From the IMG/VR virus record IMGVR_UViG_3300044632_002025: a stretch of 64,000 nucleotides of DNA. One strand, 5' to 3'. Shown one piece after another: positions 765-61,904 of the stretch (position 1 is its first letter; each line of letters starts with the position of its first letter). Origin of the DNA: a virus. Under the pieces are notes generated by a model that was given only the letters and a program-made list of their open reading frames with translations, ran no database searches and had not been told where the DNA came from. The position numbers and the translations under genes are program-made.

Positions 765-921
765 ATTATATGGTCAAAAAGTGCTTTTTGTGTGGCTGAA
801 ATCAGCCCCTAACCCTAAACCTTCCTAATTTCGCCTCCAAAATGATGTATAATGATGTATATCAAACTCCTGGTCGGTATTGGTTTTCTCTGGTCAACCT
901 AAAGGATTGTGAGACAATTAT

Positions 922-1050
922 GAAAAAGAGTTATGGTGGATTTTACCATTATTTGGGGTTGAGGGGGAAAAAGAGTTATGGTGAATTTCACCATTATTAT
1001 CTTAGGTGGAAAAAGAGTTATGGTAATTTTTACCATTATTATCTTGGGTT
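922..1050. repeat. three tandem 42-45 bp units, each carrying a 17-bp palindrome (ATGGTGnAtTTnCACCAT type)
   Basis: GAAAAAGAGTTATGGTGGATTTTACCATTATT starts at 922, 967 and 1009. Track ORF 842-1072 is just its translation (repeated KKSYG.F.HYY). Confidence 0.85.
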
Positions 1051-1146
1051 GGGGGGGGTGGGGATTTGTTGAGAAATGTTTCTTCGGTTAAAGCTCTTTG
1101 AGTGTCTTATCATACCTAAGATTGGCTCAGGGTCAGCCTTTTAGAC

Positions 1147-1157
1147 TATACGCCCAA
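1147..1157 (+). promoter_or_regulatory. start-associated motif copy (TATACGCCCAA)
   Basis: 38 nt upstream of ATG 1195. Its 3' half forms a hairpin arm (AATCCA/TGGATT). Confidence 0.45.
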
Positions 1158-1194
1158 TCCAGAAATTGGATTCTAAAACTATTTATAGAGGGAT

Positions 1195-1686
1195 ATGAGA
1201 AAGAAAGACGTTAGAATGAGCAAAGAGGTCGTGGAACAAACCAAAAAATTGTTCCAAATCTATAAACTGGGAGGGGTGTCTGTTAGGACTTTAGCAGAAC
1301 GGTTCGATATTCCCTGGACTACTTTAAGAGATAGATTTCGTTCCCAATATGGAAAACAGTATACCAAACATAGAGCAGATGAAGGGACTGTCCATGCTGT
1401 GATTAAAGAACATTTAAGTCGTCTAGAAGGTATTCACTTACGCAGGGCGGCTGAATGGTATCGGAAGAATCAAGCAGAACTCCTAATGCAAGCTCTTGAA
1501 GACCAAATGAATCCAGGGCAACGACCTAAAGTATATACCGAACGTCGTATGGATTCTGATACCAAAGCTATGTGTCGTTTGAACCATGATATAGGGTCTT
1601 CTCCTTATTTATCCGATGGTAGGTATGAACCTAAAATCGATGGTGAAGATTCAGACGAACCTTTACCATCAGACTTTTGGGATTAA
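1195..1686 (+). CDS. putative helix-turn-helix DNA-binding protein
   Basis: GGVSVRTLAERFDIPWTTLRDRF looks like an HTH. It lies next to the palindromic iterons. Confidence 0.5.
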   Translation: MRKKDVRMSKEVVEQTKKLFQIYKLGGVSVRTLAERFDIPWTTLRDRFRSQYGKQYTKHRADEGTVHAVIKEHLSRLEGIHLRRAAEWYRKNQAELLMQALEDQMNPGQRPKVYTERRMDSDTKAMCRLNHDIGSSPYLSDGRYEPKIDGEDSDEPLPSDFWD

Positions 1687-1688
1687 TT

Positions 1689-1718
1689 GGGTCTAACGGG
1701 GTCTAACGGGGTCTGACC
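1689..1718. repeat. three tandem decamers GGGTCTAACG/GGGTCTGACC
   Basis: Direct reading of the sequence. Confidence 0.8.
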
Positions 1719-1747
1719 CATCCTCAACCCTACCTGACCCCTCCTGA

Positions 1748-1768
1748 CCCCTTTGGAAGGGGTTTTTT
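1748..1768 (+). terminator. rho-independent terminator CCCCTT-tgg-AAGGGG-TTTTTT
   Basis: Hairpin plus T6. A near-identical element lies at 59809-59829. Confidence 0.7.
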
Positions 1769-1804
1769 ATTGTCAACCCCCAGTCTGCCCCGGTTAAGCT
1801 GGGG

Positions 1805-1996
1805 GGTGGTTCAAATGTACTAGACAAAGATGAACTGGGGGGGGTAGGGGGGGGTTCTCTTTTTTCAGGGCGACCCTTCCTATTCCATCCCCCCCAAGTT
1901 TGACAGGGCTTAACTGGGTTTGACCCCTAGACCCCCTTTTACCTTGGGTATGAGTATTTATACCTATCCCTAAAGACATAGTACGGGGTTTGACCC
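1805..1996 (-). repeat. repeat module M copy 1 (TATAAATA block, G/C-run box, TAGTACATTTG block)
   Basis: Its reverse complement is colinear with 3128-3255 and 60837-60990. 1861-1996 is a ~135-bp direct repeat of 2200-2336. Confidence 0.75.
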
Positions 1997-2173
1997 GACC
2001 AGACCCCGTTTAACCACTTCCACCCAACCTGACCCAGTTAGCTAAGGGTGGAAGTGGGGGGGTTCTTGGGTTTTTTTATGGAGACCTCCTTGATTCCACT
2101 TGGTCGGATTGGGTTGAATCTGGTTTGACCCTGCCAGCCCCAGCCTAAGCCAACCAGCCCCAGCCATTCCTTA

Positions 2174-2336
2174 CTAAGGGGGTAGGGGGGTTAGGTTGGT
2201 TTTTCAGGGCGACCCCCCTTATTTCATCCCTCCCAAGTTTAACAGGGCTTAACTGGGTTTGACCCCCCAGACCCCCTTTTACCTTGGGTATGAGTATTTA
2301 TACCTATTTCTAAAGACATAGTACGGGGTTTGACCC
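2174..2336 (-). repeat. repeat module M copy 2
   Basis: Direct repeat of copy 1 at 340-bp spacing. It includes ACCTTGGGTATGAGTATTTATACCTAT. Confidence 0.75.
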
Positions 2337-2497
2337 TGCCAGACCAGTCTTAGCCAACCAGTCCCAACTATTCTATACTAGGGGGGTAGGGGGGGTTAGG
2401 TTGGTTTTTATAACGGACAGTTATAACTCCGCACCTGGTCTGACCTGTTTTAGCCCGGTTCAACCCCAGTTTAATACATTTGTACTATATAAATCCA

Positions 2498-2536
2498 CAA
2501 CTGGGGGGGTTCGAGGCATTTTTCACCCCCCTAGTT
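2498..2536. repeat. G-run/C-run hairpin CAACTGGGGGGG...CCCCCCTAGTT
   Basis: Inverted arms with a 16-nt T-rich loop. Confidence 0.7.
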
Positions 2537-2560
2537 TCCCCTTTAGACTCAGATGAAACC

Positions 2561-2630
2561 CAGTCTGGCCATGTTCAACCCAGTCTGGTCATGTTCAACC
2601 CCGTCTGGCCATGCTTAACCCAGTCTGGTA
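2561..2630. repeat. 3.5 tandem copies of the 20-mer CAGTCTGGCCATGTTCAACC
   Basis: Exact 20-bp period (2561, 2581, 2601, 2621). Confidence 0.85.
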
Positions 2631-2650
2631 CAAGTGTACTAAGGGTCTAA

Positions 2651-2701
2651 CAAGTAGGGGGGTTACTTGAATCTGAAATTCTCTCCGAACCCCCCCACTT
2701 G
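2651..2701. repeat. G-run/C-run hairpin CAAGTAGGGGGGTT...AACCCCCCCACTTG
   Basis: 14-nt inverted arms with a 23-nt loop. Confidence 0.7.
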
Positions 2702-2840
2702 CCCCCTTAGACCCAGGTGAAACCTAGACAGGACAAGGTTTCCAGGTTGCCCCCTGACTTCCCCTATTAGGACTTAATTGCCGTTGTTGATGATGGTTAG
2801 ACCAAGTTTAAAATCTGTCAAAAGTTCAGTGTTTTAAGGG

Positions 2841-2869
2841 TTGCAAAATATTCACGCCCAAGTTATAAT
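2841..2869 (+). promoter_or_regulatory. strong sigma70-type promoter TTGCAA-N17-TATAAT
   Basis: Near-consensus hexamers. The spacer contains ACGCCCAA. No protein gene follows for ~600 nt. Confidence 0.6.
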
Positions 2870-2883
2870 AGGGAAAGAGTCTT

Positions 2884-3127
2884 GAGGTCAAATTATACTC
2901 TAGGACAAACATTTAACCTAACCATTTTTAGGAAATGTATAAATGGATACATTTTGGGTCAAACTGGGGCTTAAGGGACACCAACATCGTCAAACCATTC
3001 CAGCATGGGGTTTGCGGGGGATTTGCCAAGTCGAAACTGGAGTAGATAGGGCTAACTGGGAAATTGATGCCCTGGACATAAAAAACCAAAGCAACCCCCC
3101 CACTTGATGGGTTAAAACAGGGCTATA
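2884..3127 (+). repeat. conserved blocks i-iv shared with 60587-60836
   Basis: GAGGTCAAATTA.ACTCTAG.ACAAACATTT.ACCT; AAATGTATAA..G.TACATTTTGGGT; GGACA.CAACATCG.CAAACCATTCCAGCA.GGG..TTGCGGGG. Confidence 0.8.
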
Positions 3128-3345
3128 TCTTTAGAGGTAGGTATAAATACTCATACCTTGTACATAACGGTTAGTCGAGGGCAGTGCGGGGAGAATTAGT
3201 CCTCCCCTGTAGAAAAAACTGACCTACCCCCCCCCACCCCCCCTAGGAGATGAGAGACTGGTTAGTCGAAGGCAGTGCGGGGGGAATTAGGTCTCCCCCG
3301 TAGAAAAAAACTTATCCACCCCCCTACCTACCCCGTTGACGGGTT
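3128..3345 (+). repeat. repeat module M copy 3 plus two ~92-bp tandem subunits (GGCAGTGCGGGG...AGAAAAAAC...CCCCCC)
   Basis: CTTTAGAGGTAGGTATAAATACTCATACC, then subunits at 3170-3258 and 3262-3345. Confidence 0.75.
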
Positions 3346-3380
3346 AACCTAGAAACTCTACGGGGTCGGGACTTCAGTAA

Positions 3381-3422
3381 CAACTAGGGGGGTTATTTTA
3401 GGATTCAGACCCCCCCTAGTTG
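3381..3422. repeat. perfect hairpin CAACTAGGGGGG-N18-CCCCCCTAGTTG
   Basis: 12-nt perfect inverted arms. Confidence 0.8.
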
Positions 3423-3504
3423 GGAATTTAATACCTAAAACAAATAGGGTTTTATCAACTCTAAACAGGTTAGACATTGATAAAACCTATTCGCTATGTT
3501 AGCC

Positions 3505-4401: not shown

Positions 4402-5019
4402 ATGACACCGGAAGAAATTAAACTATTATTAGAGGAATCGCAACAGGCGTTTCTATCCCAACTACAAGGGGAATTGGGAACGCTAAAGGCAGGCATCTTA
4501 AGCGAGGTAGACCGAAAAAACAGTGGATTGGCGAGTAGTCTACAAAAATCCTGGGATAAAAAAACCACTAAAGCACCCGAACCTGAGCCAGAATTAGAAG
4601 TGGAAGTGGAGACACCCAAACAGAAACTAAGTCTTCAAGCCCTACAGAAACAGATTGAAGATTTGAAAAAACAGTCAGAGGAAAAAGACAGAAAAATAGT
4701 TGCCAAAGAATTAGAATCCACATTAAATGCAACAATCTCCAAATTTAAACCGCTAGACTTAGGAATTGCGACCAAAGCCTTTAAGCTACAGTACGAGGAT
4801 AACTTAGTTTACGAGGATGGTGTAGCCTTTGTCAAAAATGGGGATAATGTGGAAAGTCTGGATGAGGCGTTAGGAAAATTCCTAGAAACTGATTTCGGTA
4901 AAAGTCTATTACCCCCGACATCCAAAGCTCGTGGTGCTGGATTAAAACCCCAAAACAGTAGCCCTGCCCCCACAGAGGGGAAACGGGACATTCTGGAAGA
5001 TTTGTTTATTGAGGATTAA
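4402..5019 (+). CDS. putative scaffolding protein
   Basis: Acidic, coiled-coil-like 205-aa protein immediately upstream of the capsid gene. Confidence 0.4.
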   Translation: MTPEEIKLLLEESQQAFLSQLQGELGTLKAGILSEVDRKNSGLASSLQKSWDKKTTKAPEPEPELEVEVETPKQKLSLQALQKQIEDLKKQSEEKDRKIVAKELESTLNATISKFKPLDLGIATKAFKLQYEDNLVYEDGVAFVKNGDNVESLDEALGKFLETDFGKSLLPPTSKARGAGLKPQNSSPAPTEGKRDILEDLFIED

Positions 5020-33246: not shown

Positions 33247-33870
33247 TTGTTTATGAACACTGATAACTGGTTTATGCTCGTTCCTTCTAGAATAGCCTCC
33301 TCCAAATTAGGGCTTCACCCCCATACCCTTAGAAAATATTTTGATGACGGTTTGATTAAGGGGATTAAAAACCCCGCAGGTCAACGATATTACGATGTTG
33401 AATCCTATTTAGCCGACCCTCTTGACAAACCCTCAGTTATCTGTTATGCTAGGGTTAGTTCAAGAAAACAGTCTGCTGATTTGGCTAGACAGGTCGATTT
33501 CTTGAAATCAGTTTACCCCGATTCGGAGATTATTACAGATGTCGGTTCTGGACTTAACTTCAAAAGAAAAGGTATTCAAACCCTATTGGACAGATTACTC
33601 TCAGGAGATTAGTTCACTCTTGCTATCTCCCACCGAGATAGACTCTGCCGATTCGGATTTGAATTGTTCCAATACCTTTTCCTCAAGAACGGTGGAACAA
33701 TCGTGGTTCTCAACAATACTCAAACAAGTCCCGAACAAGAACTTACCCCCTACTTACTATCAATCCTCCATATTTTCAGTTGCAGAGTCTACGGACTTAG
33801 AAAAAACAACAAAAATATCGAGGAAGATAAGACTTTACCCCGACAAAACTCAACAAAATCTACTGAATGA
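33247..33870 (+). pseudogene. tnpA: IS607-type serine recombinase TnpA interrupted by one in-frame TAG (33610-33612)
   Basis: MerR-like HTH, catalytic YARVSSRKQ..DLARQ, then ...LLSGD*FTLAISHRDRLCRFGFE...SPEQEL...FSCRVYGLRK, all in a single frame. Confidence 0.8.
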
Positions 33871-34969
33871 GCTAATCTCTCAATATCGGTTTGTTTACAA
33901 TAAAACTGTAGATTTGCTGATAAACGGTAAAATTGGGGCTAATTGTGATTTAAAGACTAAGAAAGAAAGAAAAGGTTTGTCAAGCTATGACATCCGTGAC
34001 ACATTCTTTCAATTTTGGTTGGAGAAACACACTTGGTTAACCAATTGCATAAACATAAATACAGTAAAGGAGGCTATCACCGAAGCTATCAATGCCCAAC
34101 AAGTAGGGTTTGCCCAATTAAAAGCGGGGTTAGTTGAAAGGTTTGAGTTAAAATTCAAATCTAGAAAAAAGCCCCGACAAACTATCAACCTAAAAAAGGA
34201 AATACTCTCAGCTAAGGGAGTGTTAGCCCCCCGAAACCTAAAACTAGAAACCCCCCTAAAATCAGACACAAGGGGTAGTTTTGATGGTCTAACCCTCACA
34301 ACTACTGGGGGATTGTTCTACCTAATTTATACTGAAGATATTGCTAATAATCCAGAAGTCGAAAACCAAGACCTAAAGATTGTAGCATTAGACCCTGGTG
34401 TTAGAACTTTCCAAACTATTTTCTCGTCTAATGGGGTTTTCGGTAAATTTGGTCAAGAAGCCATTAAAAGATTGGCTAAACTATGCCATAAAGCAGACAA
34501 AATCCAATCTAAAATAGCTAAAACCAAAAACCAAAGTCGGATTAATTATCTAAGAATGTGGCAACAACGAACCACATTAAAGATAAGAAATCTGAGGAAA
34601 GAACTCCACCACAAAATTAGTAGATTTCTAGTAGATAACTTTGATGTAATCCTGCTACCCTGCTTTAACACCGGTGAAATGGTTAAAAAGAAGGACAGAA
34701 AAATCAATAAATCTACTACCCGTTCAATGTTAAATTTTGGACATTATGAGTTTAAGGAATTATTAAAGTTCAAAGCCAATAAATTTGGTAAAAAACTAAT
34801 AATAGTTTCTGAGGCTTATACCTCCAAAACCGTATCATGGACAGGGGAAATAATAGCTAATCTAGGTGGGAGGAAAGTAATCAAATCTCAGAGTAACGAA
34901 AGTTTAGACAGAGATTTAAATGGAGCCAGAGGAATCCTAATAAAATTCTTAACTGAGCTACCCCAATAG
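33539..34969 (+). CDS. tnpB: TnpB (OrfB) RuvC-like transposon-associated protein; true start uncertain (GTG 33692 possible)
   Basis: RKIRLYPDKTQQNLLNELISQYRFVYNK, ALDPGVRTF (RuvC-I Asp), AYTSKT, DRDLNGARGI (RuvC-III Asp). Confidence 0.8.
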   Translation: MSVLDLTSKEKVFKPYWTDYSQEISSLLLSPTEIDSADSDLNCSNTFSSRTVEQSWFSTILKQVPNKNLPPTYYQSSIFSVAESTDLEKTTKISRKIRLYPDKTQQNLLNELISQYRFVYNKTVDLLINGKIGANCDLKTKKERKGLSSYDIRDTFFQFWLEKHTWLTNCININTVKEAITEAINAQQVGFAQLKAGLVERFELKFKSRKKPRQTINLKKEILSAKGVLAPRNLKLETPLKSDTRGSFDGLTLTTTGGLFYLIYTEDIANNPEVENQDLKIVALDPGVRTFQTIFSSNGVFGKFGQEAIKRLAKLCHKADKIQSKIAKTKNQSRINYLRMWQQRTTLKIRNLRKELHHKISRFLVDNFDVILLPCFNTGEMVKKKDRKINKSTTRSMLNFGHYEFKELLKFKANKFGKKLIIVSEAYTSKTVSWTGEIIANLGGRKVIKSQSNESLDRDLNGARGILIKFLTELPQ

Positions 34970-39810: not shown

Positions 39811-39840
39811 TTGACAAACCCATAAAGGCTAAGTTATACT
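39811..39840 (+). promoter_or_regulatory. promoter TTGACAAACCCATAAAGGCTAAGTTATACT
   Basis: -35/-10 with an 18-nt spacer. Duplicated at 40700-40729. Confidence 0.65.
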
Positions 39841-39874: not shown

Positions 39875-40714
39875 ATGGAAATCGTAAAACCCACAACTGT
39901 TAAAGTCCCCGAATTAGATATGGAATTGCAATTTTTTGTCAGTGCAGACGGGAAAACCTGTGGCATGAGTCAGTCTGCGTTAGCCCGATTATGTGGAGTT
40001 CAACGTGGGAGTATGTTCTCAGAGGGTCGGGTTATCGCAAATCTTTCTCAAGAAACCCCCGAATCAAAAACAGTCCCAGAATGCTTGAAACCCTTCCAAG
40101 GTAAGGTTTTCTCCCAGACGCTGAAAGGGGATTGCGACAGTGTTAATCTTGCGAACATTGTCAACAGTAAAGCCGCCGCCGCTATCATTTCCTATTACGG
40201 TTTTGAATCAAAAGCCGCTAATCCAGTGGCTCGAAAAAGTCTTTTAGCTTTTGCTTCAATCGGAATCGACACATGGATTAAATCTGTCACTGGTTATGTC
40301 TCTGACTCAGACCGTCTGGCTAACATTGAAATGGTCATGACGGGTTTAGTTGGTGAAGTACGGGAAATGCGAGAAGAAATCCGTGACTTCAAAAAAGTAG
40401 TCACGGTCTATCCTAAAATCGATGGGTGGAAAAATGGACTAAAAGGTTTGCCCTTTTATCTGCCGGAAGATTTCTCCCTAAAAGATTACCTAGAAGCAAA
40501 GGCTTTAGACTTCACTAACACAGAGTTCCGCAAAATCCGCCTTCAAGTTGCTCAAGCATGGGAAACCTTAATGGGTGAAAAACCCCCAAAACGCCATGTC
40601 TACGGGTTAAAAAACGGCAAGAAAAAACGAATCAGCACTGAGTATTTCTACCGACGGGAAGACATCCCGATGATTGAGGAAATTCTTTTGGGTTTAGACT
40701 TGACAAACCCATAA
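39875..40714 (+). CDS. hypothetical DNA-binding-like protein
   Basis: Intact ORF. N-terminus GMSQSALARLCGV is HTH-like. Confidence 0.4.
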   Translation: MEIVKPTTVKVPELDMELQFFVSADGKTCGMSQSALARLCGVQRGSMFSEGRVIANLSQETPESKTVPECLKPFQGKVFSQTLKGDCDSVNLANIVNSKAAAAIISYYGFESKAANPVARKSLLAFASIGIDTWIKSVTGYVSDSDRLANIEMVMTGLVGEVREMREEIRDFKKVVTVYPKIDGWKNGLKGLPFYLPEDFSLKDYLEAKALDFTNTEFRKIRLQVAQAWETLMGEKPPKRHVYGLKNGKKKRISTEYFYRREDIPMIEEILLGLDLTNP

Positions 40715-40729
40715 CGGCTAAGTTATAAT
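40700..40729 (+). promoter_or_regulatory. promoter TTGACAAACCCATAACGGCTAAGTTATAAT (drives the tRNA)
   Basis: Copy of 39811-39840. Overlaps the last codons of the upstream ORF. Confidence 0.65.
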
Positions 40730-40754
40730 AAAGAGGTCTGGAGCAAAAGACCTT

Positions 40755-40826
40755 CTGGGTTTAGCTTATCGGATAAGCACCGTCCTCATAAGACGGCATA
40801 GGTGGGTTCGACTCCCACAACCCAGA
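40755..40826 (+). tRNA. tRNA with CAU anticodon (Met elongator or Ile2/lysidine type); no encoded CCA
   Basis: Hand fold: acceptor CTGGGTT/AACCCAG, D stem GCTT/AAGC, anticodon stem CCGTC/GACGG with loop CTCATAA, T arm GTGGG-TTCGACT-CCCAC. Confidence 0.85.
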
Positions 40827-40851
40827 TTTGTTCCTTGTTTGGTTTATTTAA

Positions 40852-45278: not shown

Positions 45279-46184
45279 ATGTCTGAATTTACCAACGCCC
45301 CTATTATTGTTAACGACTTTAGGGTAGCAGTGTACCAGATTTACCATCAGTACCAGTTTATTAAAGCCAATCTTCCTGCCGCTACTGCCTCAACTTGGTT
45401 AAAGGCTACATGGGCTATTACATTGAATCGGGGGTTTACTGGTCTTCCTTATTTCCCCCATACAGTGGTGGTAGTAGATGATAGTAGCCCTTACTGGAGA
45501 GAAGCCTACCTTAGAGAGAGAGGATTCCCAGAGTATAAAGGTGGTAGACCCTCTAAAACCGATGAATGGTATGAGGTCAACCAAGCTGGGTTAGATTATG
45601 TAACTGCCCCTAACAGCCCTATTCACTATTTAAGATTCCCCCAATTTGAGGCAGATGATATAGCCTCTGCCATTGTAAGAAGCAAAAGTAATAGACTGGT
45701 TTTTCTCCACACGATAGACTCTGACTGGATGGGTTTGGTTAACAATGGTGTCCTCAACAGTATGACCTTAGACCAAGCCCTATTGGAACCCTTTGTGGAA
45801 CCCACCTCTCTCTGGGTCAGTATGGCGCAATGGACTCCTCGGTTCCGTGATGAGGCGGGTGTATTTGCTCACACCTTAAAACGGGAAAAACGTAAAATTG
45901 ACTCTCCCCCCCAAATTTGGGATATAAAAGTTGAAAAAGGCGATAAGAGTGATAATCTCATCAAAGGTAGTCCTATCGAAGTGATTAATCTACTCAATCC
46001 CCCTCCTGAATTTGATATTTTACAAAGAGCTAACTACGCACCACAGGTACGTCAAGTGGTTAACTCCGGTGAACCCAATTCTAGTTTTAAGCACCTGAAG
46101 AAAGCCCACGACTGGTTTGTTGAATCTGGTCAAAGAGTAACAGTACATGGGTACTATGACTTTTTAAGTCCAGAGTTGACTTGA
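45279..46184 (+). CDS. 5'-3' exonuclease / flap endonuclease-like protein
   Basis: VVVDDSSPYWR...YKGGR...FEADDIASAIV resembles the PIN-like 5' nuclease motifs. Confidence 0.55.
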   Translation: MSEFTNAPIIVNDFRVAVYQIYHQYQFIKANLPAATASTWLKATWAITLNRGFTGLPYFPHTVVVVDDSSPYWREAYLRERGFPEYKGGRPSKTDEWYEVNQAGLDYVTAPNSPIHYLRFPQFEADDIASAIVRSKSNRLVFLHTIDSDWMGLVNNGVLNSMTLDQALLEPFVEPTSLWVSMAQWTPRFRDEAGVFAHTLKREKRKIDSPPQIWDIKVEKGDKSDNLIKGSPIEVINLLNPPPEFDILQRANYAPQVRQVVNSGEPNSSFKHLKKAHDWFVESGQRVTVHGYYDFLSPELT

Positions 46185-46209
46185 CAGACTTCGCTCAAAC
46201 TGTTATACT
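46181..46209 (+). promoter_or_regulatory. promoter TTGACA-N17-TATACT
   Basis: Overlaps the stop of the exonuclease gene. Confidence 0.6.
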
Positions 46210-46233
46210 GGAGTTAACCTTCAGGATTCAACC

Positions 46234-46497
46234 ATGTACATTATAATTACACCGTGCGAAACATATCAAACCCCAGTTTTGACAGAGGTTGAGCAACAAG
46301 GTCTGGAAAGTGGTGAGTACACCATACTCAAGGTAATCTTCGATGGCTCTGATGAAGTAGTCCATCTAGATTGGACGGTACTCCAGGATTGGATTGAACA
46401 GAAAAAACAGGAAAAAAGAAATAACCTAAACCCCTTGACATCTAATCTACTCTCTGTTATACTGGGGTTATTAACCCAACAAAAACTGGTTAAGTGA
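46234..46497 (+). CDS. hypothetical protein; its last ~25 codons are a translated promoter cassette
   Basis: Intact ORF. The 3' end coincides with cassette copy 2. Confidence 0.35.
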   Translation: MYIIITPCETYQTPVLTEVEQQGLESGEYTILKVIFDGSDEVVHLDWTVLQDWIEQKKQEKRNNLNPLTSNLLSVILGLLTQQKLVK

Positions 46498-46549
46498 GAA
46501 CCAAGCTTAATCAATCAGGGTTAAACCCCCTTTAACTAGGGTAAAGCGG
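46430..46549 (+). repeat. promoter-leader cassette copy 2 (promoter 46435-46463)
   Basis: CCCCTTGACATCTAATCTACTCTCTGTTATACTGGGGTTA..ACCCAACAAAAACTGGTTAAGTGAGAACCAAGCTTAATCAATCAGGGTTAAACCCCCTTTAACTAGGGTAAA. Confidence 0.85.
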
Positions 46550-46584
46550 CAGAGAAAAGCCTAAAAAGAATTTTCTCAAACCCC

Positions 46585-46613
46585 TTGACACCTAATATAC
46601 CTTCTGTTATACT
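46585..46613 (+). promoter_or_regulatory. promoter TTGACA-N17-TATACT
   Basis: CCCCTTGACACCTAATATACCTTCTGTTATACTAGGG. Confidence 0.65.
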
Positions 46614-46660: not shown

Positions 46661-47575
46661 ATGACAACCTCAACTGCACAAGTACCCTCCGTAGTTTCCT
46701 TTGATGAAGTAATTTCCTTATACTCTGGTAAGCTTTGGGACAAGGTTTATACCAATGTTCCAAACTCTAAGATTGGACGTACCTTAACCACCCAACTCAG
46801 TTACATTTTAAACCAAGTTGGTGAAAAGTTCGACCCAGATGGCTCCATTCTGACAGTAAAAGCGGAAAATGGGGTGTTCAAAGCACTCTATAGCCCCACC
46901 CTTTATAAAGTTTCTAACACATTATTGCGGGGTTCGGCATACGCAAAAGCAAACCCCAGCTTGTTTGAAGACGAACCTGCTGAAAACGGTGAAACTGGTT
47001 ACAACCTAGGAGTTCGTTTCAGTCAAACCTTGTTCGTACCCTACATGGCTTTCGCCAATATCGAAGGCATCGCATCCATGCCTTCCGACAGTGGCATCAC
47101 CATTGTCCTTCCCGAAAGCGAAGCGTTCCCCGAAGGTTTGACCTTTGACTTGACCGCACGTTTTACTGAAGCCGACATGGAAAAACGTAAAAACGATTCC
47201 ATAAAAATGCGTCGGGCATTCACAAAAGGTACTTTCTTTACTTATTTGGCTGAACCCCCGACTGGTGGTGGTTCTGCTACACCCCTCCGTGATTTGGAAG
47301 ACGGTACAGAATACACTATCGTAGGGTATGAATTTAAAGAAAGTGACAATGGTGGATTTTTCACCCTCACCACTGAAGATGGTATGAAGATTATGTCCAA
47401 CAAAGCCATTGCCCGTACTCTTGAGGCTGGCCCGGTAGTCACCCCTACTAAAACCTGCTTACTCCGAGTAGTAAACAAAACAAAAATGGCAAATGGAAAT
47501 ACTAAGGTTAATGCGTCTCTAGTCGTACCCTCTGAGAATTTCCCCAGCCGTGGAGACATCGACCTAGATTGGTAG
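46661..47575 (+). CDS. hypothetical protein (304 aa)
   Basis: Intact ORF behind two tandem promoters. Confidence 0.45.
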   Translation: MTTSTAQVPSVVSFDEVISLYSGKLWDKVYTNVPNSKIGRTLTTQLSYILNQVGEKFDPDGSILTVKAENGVFKALYSPTLYKVSNTLLRGSAYAKANPSLFEDEPAENGETGYNLGVRFSQTLFVPYMAFANIEGIASMPSDSGITIVLPESEAFPEGLTFDLTARFTEADMEKRKNDSIKMRRAFTKGTFFTYLAEPPTGGGSATPLRDLEDGTEYTIVGYEFKESDNGGFFTLTTEDGMKIMSNKAIARTLEAGPVVTPTKTCLLRVVNKTKMANGNTKVNASLVVPSENFPSRGDIDLDW

Positions 47576-58452: not shown

Positions 58453-58522
58453 AGCATCAGGCAAACAAACACGGAAAACAAGATTACGGGTAACGATAAA
58501 CAACCAGTCGAACGCTATAATC

Positions 58523-58550
58523 AGTTATCAGTTATCAGTTATCAGTTATC
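58523..58550. repeat. (AGTTATC)x4 heptamer repeat in the 5'UTR
   Basis: Also x2 at 57339-57352 and x3 at 59210-59230. Confidence 0.9.
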
Positions 58551-58580
58551 AACTATTTGGGACTAACAAAAAAAAAAAAA

Positions 58581-59207
58581 ATGAACCAATTTACCGAAAA
58601 ACTACCCAACGGAGTAACATTAGAAATGGTAAGCTTACCAGCAGGTCAATTTCTCATGGGTTCTTCTGAAAGTGATTCTAAAAAGCCTAAACACCAAGTT
58701 AAAGTAAACAGTTTTGCCATTGGCAAATATCCCATTACTCAGGCACAGTATCAAGCAGTAATGGGAACCAATCCCTCTTACTTTGAAAATAGTCCCCAAA
58801 ATCCAGTAGAACAAGTTAGTTGGGACGATGCTCAAGCCTTTTGCCTAAAATTAAGTGAAATCACAGGCAAAACCTATCGTCTTCCCACAGAAGCTGAATG
58901 GGAATATGCCTGTCGAGCAGGTACAACTACTCACTATTATTTTGGTGATGATGCTAATCAGTTAGGGGAGTACGCTTGGTATGACGAAAATTCTAATAAC
59001 AAAACTCATCCTGTAGGACAGAAAAAGCCCAATGGTTGGGGGCTTTATGACATGAGTGGTAATGTTTGGGAGTGGTGTGAGGATATTTGTCTGCGGGGCG
59101 GTTCTTGGCACATCTTCCCTTATTACTGTCGTTCTGCTAACCGCCTCCAGAACAACCCCGTCATCCACTACGACGACTTTGGTTTTCGGGTTGCGTGCGA
59201 CGATTAG
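58581..59207 (+). CDS. FGE-sulfatase-domain protein, shorter paralogue
   Basis: Same motifs as 57381. Start taken at MNQFTEKLPN after the A13 tract. Lacks ~23 aa before RGGSW. Confidence 0.7.
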   Translation: MNQFTEKLPNGVTLEMVSLPAGQFLMGSSESDSKKPKHQVKVNSFAIGKYPITQAQYQAVMGTNPSYFENSPQNPVEQVSWDDAQAFCLKLSEITGKTYRLPTEAEWEYACRAGTTTHYYFGDDANQLGEYAWYDENSNNKTHPVGQKKPNGWGLYDMSGNVWEWCEDICLRGGSWHIFPYYCRSANRLQNNPVIHYDDFGFRVACDD

Positions 59208-59232
59208 TTAGTTATCAGTTATCAGTTATCAG
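59206..59232. repeat. (AGTTATC)x3 heptamer repeat
   Basis: Direct reading of the sequence. Confidence 0.9.
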
Positions 59233-59257
59233 CAATTAGAGTTTTAGTGTGATTGTC

Positions 59258-59710
59258 ATGGATAACCGTCTAACGCAAGTGTTTGATTTTAACTCCATTC
59301 AGCCCATTGAAGGAATCCCTTTTCAGTCTCTTTCTCTTTATGGAGTAGATTTATACTTTCAGCCAGTATCTGGTTTAAAAGGTATCTCTGTATCTGGTTT
59401 GGCTAAATTGCTGGAATACGAGAAGGGCAGTCTGTATCAGGAGTTAAGTGAAATCCCCCCTGGATGCCATTTACCTGACAACGAGTTTTGGTCGTTTGAA
59501 AATTGCGTGAAAGAAGTAAAATCCTTATCAAATGGGGGTTTACAAAAGATTTTCCTAATCCCAGAGCATGGACTATTTTTCACTCTGGAAGCTATAAAGC
59601 TCTGGACTTACTCTCGTCGAATCAGAACCAATGCTTTGATTCTACAAGCTAAATTTGCTAAAGCAGGTTGCAAACTTACTACCATGCTTCATTCGATAAG
59701 GCTGGGGTAA
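59258..59710 (+). CDS. hypothetical protein (Bro/antirepressor-like N-terminus, unproven)
   Basis: Intact ORF. ATG 59258 is preferred over GTG 59249. Confidence 0.35.
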   Translation: MDNRLTQVFDFNSIQPIEGIPFQSLSLYGVDLYFQPVSGLKGISVSGLAKLLEYEKGSLYQELSEIPPGCHLPDNEFWSFENCVKEVKSLSNGGLQKIFLIPEHGLFFTLEAIKLWTYSRRIRTNALILQAKFAKAGCKLTTMLHSIRLG

Positions 59711-59808
59711 CAAGTGGGGGGGGTTCAAGGCTTTTTTCAAAATACCTAGACTACTACCAATACTTTTTAGCCCCAGCAATGGACATAACCAATAACTAAT
59801 TTGACCAG

Positions 59809-59829
59809 CCCCTTCCAAAGGGGTTTTTT
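59809..59829 (+). terminator. rho-independent terminator CCCCTT-cca-AAGGGG-T6
   Basis: Paralogue of 1748-1768. Confidence 0.7.
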
Positions 59830-59857
59830 ATTGTCCGTTATTTGACGGGGTTGGGAC

Positions 59858-59912
59858 ACAACTGGGGGGGGGTTCTGAGATTTTTCAAGAATGGGATAAC
59901 CCCCCTAGTTGT
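59858..59912. repeat. G-run/C-run hairpin ACAACTGGGGGGGGG...CCCCCCTAGTTGT
   Basis: Inverted arms with a 27-nt loop. Confidence 0.7.
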
Positions 59913-60072
59913 CCCCTAAACCTCTTTTTAACCTTAGTCTGACTAGGGTTTCCCACGTCTTATCCTGCCAACTAGGGGGGTGGGGGGGTTCATTCTTTTT
60001 TTCACGGGACACCCCCTAATTTCACCCCGTAGCCAATTTAAACTTATTTGACCAAACTCATCTGTTAGCCCC

Positions 60073-60101
60073 TTGACATCTTTTTTCAATTTTGCTAGAA
60101 T
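60073..60101 (+). promoter_or_regulatory. promoter TTGACA-N17-TAGAAT
   Basis: Followed by an ORF-free 220 nt and a terminator. Confidence 0.55.
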
Positions 60102-60107
60102 CAAATA

Positions 60108-60328
60108 GTAAACACATACACCAAGTTCGCCCATTCTACATGGGCAGACAGTCTTAATCGGGCAAGGTCGGAACCCTAGCCTTAAACAAGTTTTTGGGGT
60201 TCTGGACTTATCGCCCGATTCTTGACTGGTTTGCCTCCCTCCCCCTGTTAGCGAATGTTTAGCCCCTTACCTGAAACTCAGTGCTTAGACTTTTAGAATA
60301 AAGTTTTCCCGAAGTCTAAAAGTTTTTT
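60108..60328 (+). ncRNA. candidate ~220-nt small RNA
   Basis: Promoter 60073-60101. Internal stems GCCCAT/ATGGGC and AATCGGGC/GCCCGATT. Terminator TTAGACTT...AAGTCTAA-agT6 (60285-60328). No ORF. Confidence 0.35.
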
Positions 60329-60333
60329 CTCGA

Positions 60334-60492
60334 ACCCCTTGACATTTAATCTACTCTCTGTTATACTGGGGTTAACCCAACAAAAACTGGTTAAGTGAGA
60401 ACCAAGCTTAATCAATCAAGGTTAAACCCCCTTTAACTAGGGTAAAACGGGCAGTTAGCTCGTGTTAGCTTGTGGAGTGGGGTTAAGCCGTC
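60334..60492 (+). repeat. promoter-leader cassette copy 3 (promoter 60339-60367), including a copy of the first 5 codons of the sigma gene
   Basis: Near-identical to the reverse complement of 10028-10188, with a 9-10-nt internal duplication. Confidence 0.85.
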
Positions 60493-60506
60493 TTACCCCC
60501 CTGTGA
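60477..60506 (+). pseudogene. 9-codon remnant of the sigma-factor gene start (GTG GGG TTA AGC CGT ...TGA)
   Basis: MGLSR matches the first five codons of ORF 9517-10044, then diverges to a stop. Confidence 0.6.
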
Positions 60507-60586
60507 AACAGGAAATTAATGTTAATGAAAGTTAACATTTTTTATAACGGGAGAAAATCCCCAGTCAAGTTTGGTGCAAGAGTTCT

Positions 60587-60836
60587 GAGGTCAAATTAAA
60601 CTCTAGAACAAACATTTGACCTGCCAAGAAATAATAAATGTATAATTTGGTACATTTTGGGTTAATTGGTTTAAATTGGTTTAAAGGACATCAACATCGC
60701 CAAACCATTCCAGCACGGGCGTTGCGGGGATTCCCATAATGGAAACCATCTACGGCAGGGTCAAACCGGAGGGACAGGGTCAGACATAGAAAAACTGGGA
60801 TAACCCCCCCAGTTGATAGGTTTTCTTAGAGCTATG
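60587..60836 (+). repeat. conserved blocks i-iv, paralogue of 2884-3127
   Basis: Colinear at an offset of ~57.70-57.71 kb with substitutions and small indels. Confidence 0.8.
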
Positions 60837-61065
60837 CCTTTAGAAATAAGTATAAATACTCATACCCTGTTTGAACTTGGTTTAATGGGGGAAGTGAGGG
60901 GGTAGCCCAAGAAAAAACCAAGAACCCCCCCCTACCTACCCCCCTAATTGCTGGTGAAACTTTATGTCTAGTACATTTGTATTACACCCTATCTCGACTG
61001 GGGCAGTGCGGGGGAAAGCAAGGGTCAACCAAGAAAAAACCGACCTACCCCCTACCCACTTGACA
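60837..61065 (+). repeat. repeat module M copy 4 plus one GGCAGTGCGGGG subunit
   Basis: CTTTAGAAATAAGTATAAATACTCATACCC ... GAAAAAACCAAGAACCCCCCCCTACCTACCCCCC ... GTCTAGTACATTTG. Confidence 0.75.
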
Positions 61066-61089
61066 AAACCTATTAGCCCAAGATATAAT
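61060..61089 (+). promoter_or_regulatory. promoter TTGACA-N18-TATAAT
   Basis: Places the transcription start at about G61096, the first base of the tRNA-like terminal stem. Confidence 0.6.
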
Positions 61090-61095
61090 AAGAAT

Positions 61096-61291
61096 GCTAT
61101 TGTGGCTTGGTAGCCAGAGGTTTGAAACGGAAACCTCCAACCGAAAAGGAATACCCACATTAACTAACCTTTAGTTAGTGGTTCAACTGGAATTTGCGAA
61201 TCCACCAAATCTGTAAAAGCTATGGGTGAGGGAAGGGCGTTTCGCCAGAAGATTTAGGACTATTTTGCGGGTTCAATTCCCGTCAATAGCA
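61096..61291 (+). ncRNA. 196-nt tRNA-like non-coding RNA (acceptor-like terminal stem plus canonical T arm, no anticodon arm)
   Basis: GCTATTG (61096-61102) pairs with CAATAGC (61284-61290). T arm GCGGG-TTCAATT-CCCGT (61267-61283). Internal hairpins TGGC/GCCA, GAGGTTT/AAACCTC, TAACTAA/TTAGTTA. Confidence 0.45.
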
Positions 61292-61314
61292 CTTTAATTG
61301 GTTTTAATCCCCAC

Positions 61315-61343
61315 TTGACAACCAGAAACATAAAGTATATAAT
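61315..61343 (+). promoter_or_regulatory. promoter TTGACA-N17-TATAAT
   Basis: Consensus hexamers upstream of gene 61365. Confidence 0.7.
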
Positions 61344-61364
61344 GGAAAAAACGGAGAAATTTTA

Positions 61365-61904
61365 ATGACCCAAGTAAAAATCTATCTGGCTGGACGTATC
61401 CACGGGTTAACGTACCAACAAGCCACTGGTTGGCGTAATGAACTTAAAAGCTATGTTAAGGTTTGGCCAGTAGAAGTCTTAGACCCTATGGATAAATCCA
61501 AAACCCTCGAAGCCCTAGACCGCCCCATTAACAACTCTGAAACTGAATTAAACGGGTATAATCCTGGGCAAATCTACAACGATGACATTTCTGCGGTAGA
61601 AAAAGCAAATATCATTTATGCCTACCTACCTTGGGGAAGCGGGCATGGTACTTCCTTTGAAATTGGTTATGCCCAGGGTTTGAATAAAATCGTCTCTAGT
61701 ATCCCCTCCTTGAGTCATTTTTTCCCCTTTAAGACTATTATCGTGGTTGGAACTCCAGATATGGTGGGACATCCTTTCTGGTCTGAAGAGGCAGGAATAA
61801 ATTTCTTCACGCTAGACCAAATTCAGGAGGCTAAAGAGTTTTTAGCAAAAATAGTTTTTGGGGAGCGTGAAACCGAAAAAACTGGGTTAAACTCCAGAAG
61901 TTAG
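61365..61904 (+). CDS. nucleoside 2-deoxyribosyltransferase-like protein
   Basis: KIYLAGRIHG...W R......GTSFEIGYAQG pattern. Confidence 0.5.
   Translation: MTQVKIYLAGRIHGLTYQQATGWRNELKSYVKVWPVEVLDPMDKSKTLEALDRPINNSETELNGYNPGQIYNDDISAVEKANIIYAYLPWGSGHGTSFEIGYAQGLNKIVSSIPSLSHFFPFKTIIVVGTPDMVGHPFWSEEAGINFFTLDQIQEAKEFLAKIVFGERETEKTGLNSRS

Follow-up and report, generated by a model that had tools for sequence, protein, structure and literature searches.

What does a phage retain in a stretch of DNA that encodes no protein, and why should such a stretch be furnished with promoters? The question is posed by positions 59711–61364 of the IMG/VR virus record IMGVR_UViG_3300044632_002025, analysed here as a single stretch of 64,000 nucleotides (the window, with positions counted from its first base), in which four promoters, several terminators and repeats, and a 196-nt RNA shaped like a tRNA follow one another. 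The window is phage DNA, encoding a terminase, a tail protein, PhoH, KilA-N and a T5orf172 protein, with near-identical contigs present in IMG/VR; its large terminase shares 68.5% amino acid identity with that of the Microcystis siphophage Mic1, and by this sequence evidence the source is a Mic1-like, Microcystis-type siphophage. We propose, with a probability of roughly 0.7, that the region is a hyperplastic cassette zone that has lost its ORFans but still contains transcription modules and, as its one genuine RNA gene, that encoding the tRNA-shaped RNA.

An earlier account of this DNA, made without database searches (the sequence-only reading), held the interval to be free of protein genes and filled with promoter-bounded non-coding units. 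Our comparison with relatives (contigs L060–L062, 98.8% identical to the window, and L063, 93–94% identical) agrees that the interval holds no conserved open reading frame (ORF). The only two ORFs of at least 60 aa, on the minus strand at 59943–60134 (63 aa) and 60936–61160 (74 aa), are read-through of G/C homopolymer repeats, as had been claimed, with their L063 counterparts disrupted by frame shift or truncation (58 aa and an altered C-terminus; 44 aa). All of the listed sub-features are likewise present. The units are unequal: the gene for the tRNA-like RNA is deeply conserved, the unit behind promoter P2 is an orphaned promoter and leader, and the P1 unit and a block paralogous to a second gene-free region (region A, 1687–3504) are lineage-specific.

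A tRNA-shaped RNA with a covarying fold

Outside close relatives, the tRNA-like RNA is the only part of the region with a detectable homologue. Positions 61082–61294 share 74% nucleotide identity with an unannotated interval of the Microcystis phage Ma-LMM01 (NC_008562, the RNA there lying at 144,879–145,077) and its relatives, which is the region's only nucleotide match to any isolate phage; over the part of the window searched (40000–64000), the only other nucleotide match to the Ma-LMM01 group lies in a kinase gene. Exact-motif scans placed the RNA in 51 IMG/VR contigs and in three mis-binned contigs of metagenome-assembled genomes. A metagenome scan with a pattern of 20 specified bases was too loose, the matches listed being mostly random, with nhmmer on these loci adding, among the matches listed, the phage contig L205, which is AT-rich and divergent. 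A further copy, in the cyanobacterium Laspinema olomoucense D3b (L263), came from a genome scan and sits in a mobile-element-like context of IscB/HEARO, a PAPS-reductase-like gene and an ASCH gene; later genome and viral scans with other motif pairs returned coding-sequence chance matches only. The family, about 190–210 nt in length, therefore comprises four clades, namely the window's Mic1-like phage, the Ma-LMM01-type myophages, L205 and the Laspinema genomic island, with a covariance model built from two clades recovering L205 (138.7 bits) and L263 (77 bits) at full length. As the window terminase is Mic1-like, the RNA is common to this phage and the unrelated Ma-LMM01 myophages, and its presence in both argues, on sequence grounds, for horizontal spread and a host-linked benefit.

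The RNA can be divided into a cloverleaf and a large insertion. Its two ends form a 7-bp acceptor stem (1–7 with 189–195) with an invariant C2–G71 pair, followed by the discriminator A196, and no CCA is encoded at the 3′ end. A D-like arm (9–20) with the loop UGGU, replaced by an 8-nt GG loop in Laspinema, precedes an anticodon-like arm (22–42) with a stem of 5–7 bp and the loop RAAACGN (GAAACGG in the window), a mini-hairpin CC-GAAAA-GG (46–54), and, at the variable-loop position, a conserved arm (55–169, about 115 nt; ~110 nt in general and longer in some clades); a canonical T-arm (172–188) with UUCRAUU completes the molecule. The closing helix of the arm covaries in every clade (GACUUAAU/AUUAAGUU, GUCAACU/AGUUGAU, GAUAUUGA/UCAAUAUU), and inside it the invariant blocks TTTGCGAATCCACC and GGGAAGGGCGTTT are surrounded by a hairpin and a stem (CUGG/CCAG, CCGA/UCGG, UGAG/CUUA). 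An alternative inner helix, GCGAA/UUCGC, is weakened by L205, which reads UUUCAC. In both the window and Ma-LMM01, 6 nt separate the end of the −10 hexamer from base 1, a spacing from which transcription should begin at the acceptor stem.

Covariation across the sequences compared shows the predicted fold to be conserved. A MAFFT alignment of 20 sequences, not fitted to the model, has 97.7% of its cells paired, with double changes at 16 pairs compared with 3.7 in shuffles and 1–4 in slid controls. When the four clades are aligned by fitting to the model, 99% of cells are paired and double changes occur in 37 of the 62 pairs, compared with 8.1 ± 2.4 in shuffles and 5–14 in slid controls. The fold extends to a pseudoknot between the invariant loop RAAACG (61124–61129) and the invariant, complementary CGUUUY within the arm (61238–61243). 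At its end pair, 29:148, 61 copies have G-C, two independent lineages (L059 and Laspinema) have A-U, and the two nearest relatives of L059 have A.C; this variable pair supports the predicted loop-to-arm interaction. When the arm is excised in silico, ARAGORN draws a cloverleaf in three of the four clades by default, and in all four at a 90% threshold, as tRNA-Val(AAC). Since the loop RAAACG is paired with CGUUUY, this formal anticodon AAC would be pre-paired with an internal GUU.

No Rfam 15 family matches the RNA at the gathering score or at E values up to 10 in any clade, and our literature search found no prior description of it in Ma-LMM01-type phages. That it constitutes a new RNA family with no assigned function is well supported by these sequence comparisons. 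The sequence-only reading's promoter and tRNA-like RNA are thus confirmed, and are extended here by homologues, covariation and the cloverleaf core.

Several variants of the locus were encountered. In some Ma-LMM01-like contigs (L004 at 4802–4915; L008, L016, L039, L162) the full gene is preceded, ~1.2 kb upstream, by a truncated second copy consisting of the promoter, the first ~40 nt (the acceptor 5′ strand, the D-like arm and half of the next stem) and a clean intrinsic terminator. In L007, L027 and identical contigs the Ma-LMM01-type 3′ acceptor strand is replaced by CTGGGGA, which breaks the stem; this variant may be a decayed copy or a recombinant. In L263, an IscB-type protein (875–2608, minus strand; RRXRR and HNH) with a HEARO RNA (133.5 bits) lies ~2.2 kb from the tRNA-shaped RNA, with two ORFs between them, so that the two are probably unrelated.

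Promoters, terminated units and cassette turnover

A scan with the sigma70 consensus, requiring a match at at least 11 of 12 positions, found 16 near-consensus promoters in the window, where dinucleotide shuffles give 1.4 (maximum 5). Of these 16, four fall in a 1.3-kb part of the region (P1–P4; Table 1), where ~0.03 would be expected, so the local count of predicted promoters is far beyond chance. The claim that four promoters stand here without coding capacity, at a density very unusual for a phage, survives in part. The four sites and their excess over chance stand, but P4, at 61315, serves the protein gene 61365–61904, and promoters of this kind are a genome-wide habit of the phage (16 in 64 kb). 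Given this habit, and SigA-type promoters reported for early, middle and late genes of Ma-LMM01 (PMC5780444), the density is less anomalous than had been stated. Elsewhere in the window, three near-consensus promoters lie within 430 bp (46181–46613) upstream of ORF 46661–47575, two of them copies of the P2 module, one of these with the ~85-nt leader. The window's sole standard tRNA, tRNA-Met CAU (40754–40827), also has a perfect promoter, TTGACA-18-TATAAT (within 40700–40827), of the same type as P3 of the tRNA-shaped RNA.

The two units behind P1 and P2 end in AT-rich hairpins followed by T6 (60285–60327 and 60518–60545), both of which fold. The P1 unit, described earlier as a promoter with a terminated transcript of ~220 nt, bears out that description (z −4.1). 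It contains no ORF of more than 13 codons and has no homologue outside close relatives, and a 6S-like reading of it met with no Rfam match; it could be a small RNA peculiar to this lineage, or the empty shell left by a lost cassette. In the P2 unit, 60323–60493 matches 10190–10028 on the minus strand at 90% and 60333–60450 matches 46429–46549 at 95%, in keeping with the duplication that had been noticed. The gene downstream of the leader paralogue at 10 kb is a sigma70_r4/PHROG sigma factor, followed by ThyX, so the label of sigma-operon leader is fair. With a fold of z −3.37 (60374–60548), the P2 unit is best read as an orphaned promoter–leader module now ending at a terminator.

Upstream of both units, the terminator at 59807–59825 with its T-run is a paralogue of that at 1748–1768, as proposed from the sequence, sharing the stem and the TTTTTTATTGTC tail of 1748–1775, with the loops reverse-complemented. 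The loops (within 59810–59823 and 1751–1765) read TTCCAAA and TTTGGAA, as though the hairpin had been inverted in place. The two G/C-run hairpins are also found, one strong (z −2.8) and one weak (z −1.0).

Comparison of the relatives' sequences shows cassettes inserted and deleted at these modules. In L060–L062, window segment 59741–59965 is replaced, and a promoter and an 87-aa ORFan stand between the first G-run motif and the terminator. The intact ORFan (L060 4305–4568) ends ...LDFYQYTIAPTLGIYCN, and the window reads ...LDYYQYFLAPAMDITNN ahead of the same terminator, retaining a stump of the gene. L063 has a 73-aa ORF at the same site and, in addition, two ORFans (214 and 191 aa) inserted at window position ~60930 and bracketed by a direct repeat of 60831–60930. 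None of the cassette ORFs of L060–L062 and L063 belongs to a Pfam or PHROG family. The region is therefore gene-free in this genome, as the sequence-only reading had it, but the locus is not, as relatives carry ORFans at the same junctions. The junction TTTTT(T)CTCRAACCCC-TTGACA occurs at 60339, 46585, 51294 and 10174 (minus strand), and a classical terminator–promoter pair at 39811. Between the window and L063, identity is 82–93% in the flanking ORFs, 86% with indels in the P1 unit, 97% in the P2 unit, 99.2% in the block 60549–60930, 99.6% across P3 and the tRNA-like RNA, and 100% in P4.

Repeats add a further layer. The motif G6–9 T N3–14 T5+ occurs 14 times in the window compared with 0.04 expected in shuffles, and 13 of the 14 lie in the two gene-free regions, each with plus-strand copies on the left and minus-strand copies on the right; an origin-like or other DNA-level role may be considered for them. 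Region A has the same convergent layout (five on the plus strand, three on the minus), together with 22-nt tandem repeats at ~2560–2640 and GGGGTCTAAC repeats at 1680–1715. The paralogy that had been suggested between region A and the middle of the interval holds at 70.6% identity; the region A copy has a promoter, TTGCAA-17-TATAAT, directly upstream (2843–2871). Covariation in 3 of 68 pairs, from two copies only, is too thin to judge a fold for this block. The 36-nt core of the cassette-boundary repeat recurs at 1946–1981 and 2286–2321 on the minus strand and at 3123–3161. A weak match of this boundary block in Ma-LMM01-like contigs lies within coding sequence, with the core motif absent there.

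Table 1. Features of the interval 59711–61364, in window coordinates.
Feature	Position	Strand	Remarks
G-run/T-run motif copy (G8-TTC-N6-T6)	59716–59737	+	First of three plus-strand copies, with 59864–59885 and 59975–60002; family D3
3′ stump of 87-aa ORFan	59746–59799	+	Last ~17 codons (~50 nt); gene intact in L060–L062
Intrinsic terminator	59807–59834	+	8-bp stem CCCCUU/AAGGGG, then T6; paralogue of 1748–1775
G/C-run hairpin 1	59851–59919		CAACUG9...C6UAGUUG; −33.4 kcal/mol, z −2.76
G/C-run hairpin 2	59977–60028		Weaker; −26.1 kcal/mol, z −0.99
Predicted promoter P1	60073–60101	+	TTGACA-17-TAGAAT, TG-extended, 11/12 positions
Non-coding unit 1 (P1)	60108–60330	+	~220 nt, rod-like fold, z −4.07; hairpin 60285–60319 and T6
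Composite terminator-tail/promoter junction	60323–60367	+	TTTTTTCTCGAACCCC-TTGACA-17-TATACT (P2)
Predicted promoter P2	60339–60367	+	TTGACA-17-TATACT
Non-coding unit 2 (P2)	60374–60545	+	Orphan sigma-like/ThyX operon leader (~85–120 nt); hairpin 60518–60539 and T6
Region A-paralogous block	60578–60870	+	70.6% to 2875–3161; without its own promoter; 99.2% in L063
G-run/T-run motif copies	60790–60810, 60912–60932	−	Facing the plus-strand copies at 59716–60002; inverted repeats I1–I6
Cassette-boundary repeat	60831–60930	+	~100 bp; direct repeat in L063 around two inserted ORFans
Predicted promoter P3	61060–61089	+	TTGACA-18-TATAAT, 12/12 positions; start placed at G61096
tRNA-shaped RNA	61096–61291	+	196 nt; window coordinate = 61095 + RNA position
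Predicted promoter P4	61315–61343	+	TTGACA-17-TATAAT, 12/12; for ORF 61365–61904

The interval is flanked on the left by a 153-aa ORFan (59249–59710) and on the right by ORF 61365–61904, a nucleoside 2-deoxyribosyltransferase-like protein gene; the latter is a real protein gene, as is ORF 58557–59207, an FGE-sulfatase. AGTTATC heptamers stand in tandem at 59207–59236, 3′ of this FGE-sulfatase-type ORF, and a similar stretch upstream of it (about 58518–58551) matches, exactly over 34 nt, a part of the Microcystis phage Mic1 that carries no annotation. G or C homopolymer runs of at least 6 nt number 81 in the window (38 G, 43 C), compared with ~11 predicted from base composition, with many lying within coding regions and hence not restricted to the gene-free ones. 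The phage genome also contains a TnpB/Cas12f-like gene (33539–34969, plus strand) with OrfB_IS605, Cas12f1-like TNB and HTH_OrfB_IS605 domains.

Weighing the explanations

In the cassette-zone reading, a host-type sigma70 RNA polymerase would start at the four near-consensus promoters. P1 would yield a hairpin-rich RNA of ~220 nt closed by an intrinsic terminator. P2, a copy of the repeated terminator-tail/promoter/leader module that elsewhere heads the sigma-like/ThyX operon, would give a transcript meeting a terminator after ~170 nt, in effect an orphan leader RNA. P3 would start exactly at the first base of the tRNA-shaped RNA, and P4 would produce the mRNA of ORF 61365–61904. We infer that the promoters fire and that the AT-rich terminators act. 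The repeated modules, namely the composite junctions, the ~100-bp block and the convergent G-run/T-run arrays, would serve as recombination points for cassette gain and loss. The tRNA-shaped RNA is probably matured like a tRNA, by 3′ trimming and CCA addition. Its probable role is not decoding but that of a stable tRNA mimic or scaffold, which would offer the conserved arm to some factor of the host or the phage; this is our best guess for its function. More speculative, and doubtful as it stands, is the suggestion that it mimics a codon-bound tRNA and represents a new class of phage effector RNA, docking on the ribosome, on tRNA-modifying or -charging enzymes or on tRNA-directed immune nucleases so as to favour infection; the pairing of AAC with the internal GUU, the invariant purine-rich arm, the perfect promoter and the apparent horizontal transfer among unrelated phages of bloom-forming cyanobacteria bear on this idea.

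A number of observations weigh against this interpretation. The promoters, transcription starts and terminators of the region are predictions from sequence, with both unit terminators missed by a standard consensus terminator scan, and no terminator follows the tRNA-like RNA in the window, P4 starting 20 nt downstream. The P1 unit is the segment least conserved in L063 and is possibly debris, whilst recent recombination, and not selection, could explain why the other non-coding blocks are so highly identical among relatives. Within the RNA, the larger count of covarying pairs comes from the model-fitted alignment, and the inner arm helices UCC/GGG and CC/GG never vary and are thus unsupported. 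Finally, a 26-codon ORF (MLMKVNIFYNGRKSPVKFGARVLRSN; 60519–60599, plus strand) follows an AGGAA Shine-Dalgarno-like site and is possibly coding; its start codon falls inside the hairpin read as the unit 2 terminator, and as the relatives are identical across it, conservation is uninformative.

Several other explanations were considered. That everything but the tRNA-like gene is functionless debris of deleted cassettes, transcribed via surviving orphan promoters, is unlikely but merits serious attention. The stump of the 87-aa ORF, the orphan sigma-operon leader, the indel-bearing P1 unit at 86% and the lack of homologues outside close relatives all fit such decay, which accords less well with the P2 unit (97%) and the block 60549–60930 (99.2%), conserved above the neighbouring protein genes, or with two units that fold far better than shuffles. 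The same block, so conserved without a promoter of its own, has been counted in favour of a different proposal, that the region and region A form mainly a DNA-level cis element, either a replication origin or a packaging or recombination site, whose repeats bind protein and whose promoters activate the origin. Both gene-free regions share the layout of plus-strand G-run/T-run motifs on the left and minus-strand ones on the right, with short tandem repeats at 60657–60687 and 22-nt ones in region A, and cumulative GC skew peaks near 24 kb with its minimum at the window end. The skew follows gene orientation and is uninformative, however; an iteron-type origin would be expected to show an initiator gene beside its repeat arrays, and whilst such arrays are present no adjacent initiator was identified; relatives tolerate gene insertions inside the region, and every major segment is framed by a promoter and terminator on one strand. 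A cis element would furthermore leave unexplained a conserved tRNA-shaped RNA that is present in other phages without these repeats, and we regard it as very improbable. An anti-defence island, strongly expressing decoy RNAs (CRISPR-repeat mimics of the Racr type, or tRNA decoys) against the unusually rich defences of Microcystis, would account for consensus promoters driving short non-coding RNAs and for a tRNA-shaped RNA common to unrelated phages of the same host genus, and the YUGAAAC of the anticodon-like loop resembles the GAAAC 3′ ends of Microcystis repeats (PMC4428289). Yet the seven published Microcystis repeat types (PMC4428289) match the window of this presumed Microcystis phage at 20–23 of 35–37 positions at best, as they do shuffles, some members carry an A-variant of the loop (UAAAAC), the loop is paired in cis, and no defence or anti-defence protein genes were identified beside the RNA; this explanation appears quite improbable. 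A search with one CRISPR repeat pattern found no Microcystis array.

Most improbable of all is a true decoding tRNA, formally tRNA-Val (AAC), with an excisable insertion in its variable region. The canonical traits are present (the 7-bp acceptor, a D arm with GG, a T arm with UUCRAUU and the discriminator A, the stems covarying), and ARAGORN calls tRNA-Val(AAC) once the arm is removed. In contrast, the native sequence receives no default ARAGORN call and no Rfam tRNA match, position 33 is an invariant A rather than U, the anticodon-like stem has 6–7 bp, the loop pairs with the internal strand CGUUUY with the backing of covariation, and the length is 196–209 nt compared with about 70–95 nt. Conservation within the molecule is highest in the insertion, which has invariant blocks of 13–16 nt in four clades and is in this unlike an intron; Rfam finds no group I core, and variable-loop introns are not known in bacteria. 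The intron mode of ARAGORN proposes a tRNA-Phe(GAA) with a 105-nt intron, which breaks covarying stems. A group I intron-bearing tRNA was likewise rejected, the insertion lying 3′ of the covarying anticodon-like stem, with no Intron_gpI match.

Comparison with known RNAs and phage cassettes

The tRNA-shaped RNA resembles several known classes without belonging to any of those compared. Like transfer-messenger RNA (tmRNA, SsrA), its ends form an acceptor stem stacked on a T-arm, with a large, structured, pseudoknot-bearing insertion between them. Unlike tmRNA, it has a D-stem and an anticodon-like arm and no conserved tag frame. A tmRNA assignment was rejected: G3:U70 is absent (across the four clades, pair 3:70 is U-A, C-G or A-U), the window and Ma-LMM01 differ in their reading frames over the insertion, and ARAGORN's tmRNA mode finds nothing; Rfam yields no signal beyond a local T-arm match, 15 nt long and scoring 13.3 bits, compared with a gathering score of 47. 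The rnaC (species 1, 139 nt) and rnaD (species 2) RNAs of the T4 tRNA cluster, stable RNAs with no assigned function, are similarly phage-encoded and combine a canonical T-arm and a tRNA-like 3′ part with an extra domain. Whilst rnaC is part of a polycistronic tRNA cluster, the RNA described here has its own predicted promoter starting at base 1, a full cloverleaf that carries the extra domain in place of the variable loop, and a pseudoknot between loop and arm. Homology is not indicated, as rnaC scores 18 bits with the family model R1, a value that ordinary T4 tRNAs also reach (10–22), and rnaD is left unmatched; by sequence, rnaC is an analogue and not a homologue.

YrlA and other tRNA mimics, such as viral tRNA-like structures and mascRNA, copy the tRNA elbow (a D-loop GG with the T-loop) as this RNA does, and an RNA with such an elbow could, by analogy, engage tRNA-processing enzymes. 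The Ro-binding stem of YrlA is built from the two ends of the RNA, with the tRNA-like part lying internally. In the present RNA the ends pair as the acceptor stem instead, and there is no Rfam Y-RNA match, so a YrlA or Y RNA identity was rejected; no rsr gene was noticed nearby, rsr linkage not having been searched systematically. Class II tRNAs (Leu, Ser, Tyr) also carry an extra helix between the anticodon and T stems and the discriminator A73, but their extra arm measures 10–25 nt compared with a branched arm of ~110–130 nt, and they have neither A33 in place of U33 nor an anticodon loop paired in cis. An IMG/VR pattern of GGGAAGGGCG with a T-arm matched ordinary tRNAs and many gut-phage loci in which GUGAGGGAAGGGCG stands next to a partial tRNA duplication; as the family model finds none of these loci, they are chance matches. 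Many gut-metagenome IMG/VR contigs (within L067–L135) carry a widespread element in which GGUAGUGAGGGAAGGGCG is followed by an apparent partial tRNA duplication (GGTCTTAG fused to a T-arm). This element lies ~250 nt downstream of an odd tRNA and is unrelated to the tRNA-shaped RNA family by model R1.

Microcystis phages, whose genes are mostly ORFans, attract study as controls on toxic blooms. A structured and presumably strongly expressed RNA common to a Mic1-like siphophage and the Ma-LMM01 myophages points to a host-specific function overlooked by protein-centred annotation, and a cloverleaf whose anticodon is locked in cis by a codon-like strand, together with an invariant arm of ~110 nt, is found in none of the tRNA mimics compared. 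As Ma-LMM01 is culturable, the RNA is directly testable.

For the region as a whole, the closest counterpart is found among the promoter-early stem-loops (PeSLs), composite terminator/promoter motifs that flank ORFan cassettes in the hyperplastic regions of T4-type phages (PMC2839356, PMC4122927). As with PeSLs, a stem-loop and T-run here stand directly before a sigma70-type promoter, copies of this junction occur at several places in the genome, and close relatives differ by ORFan cassette indels at the repeats. In contrast to PeSLs, the setting is a Mic1-like siphophage rather than a T4-like phage, cassette behaviour is read from genome comparison, the repeated module also holds a transcribed leader of ~85 nt, and other repeats are involved (the ~100-bp boundary block and the G-run/T-run motifs). 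Given the Mic1-like terminase, the likeness to PeSLs is one of analogy and not of membership in the T4 family. On these sequence comparisons the region is a hyperplastic zone of promoter–terminator cassettes, a known kind in a new setting. 'Empty' cassettes may thus leave promoter-to-terminator RNAs behind, and the composite terminator–promoter cassette mechanism of T4-type phages has a counterpart in an unrelated cyanosiphophage.

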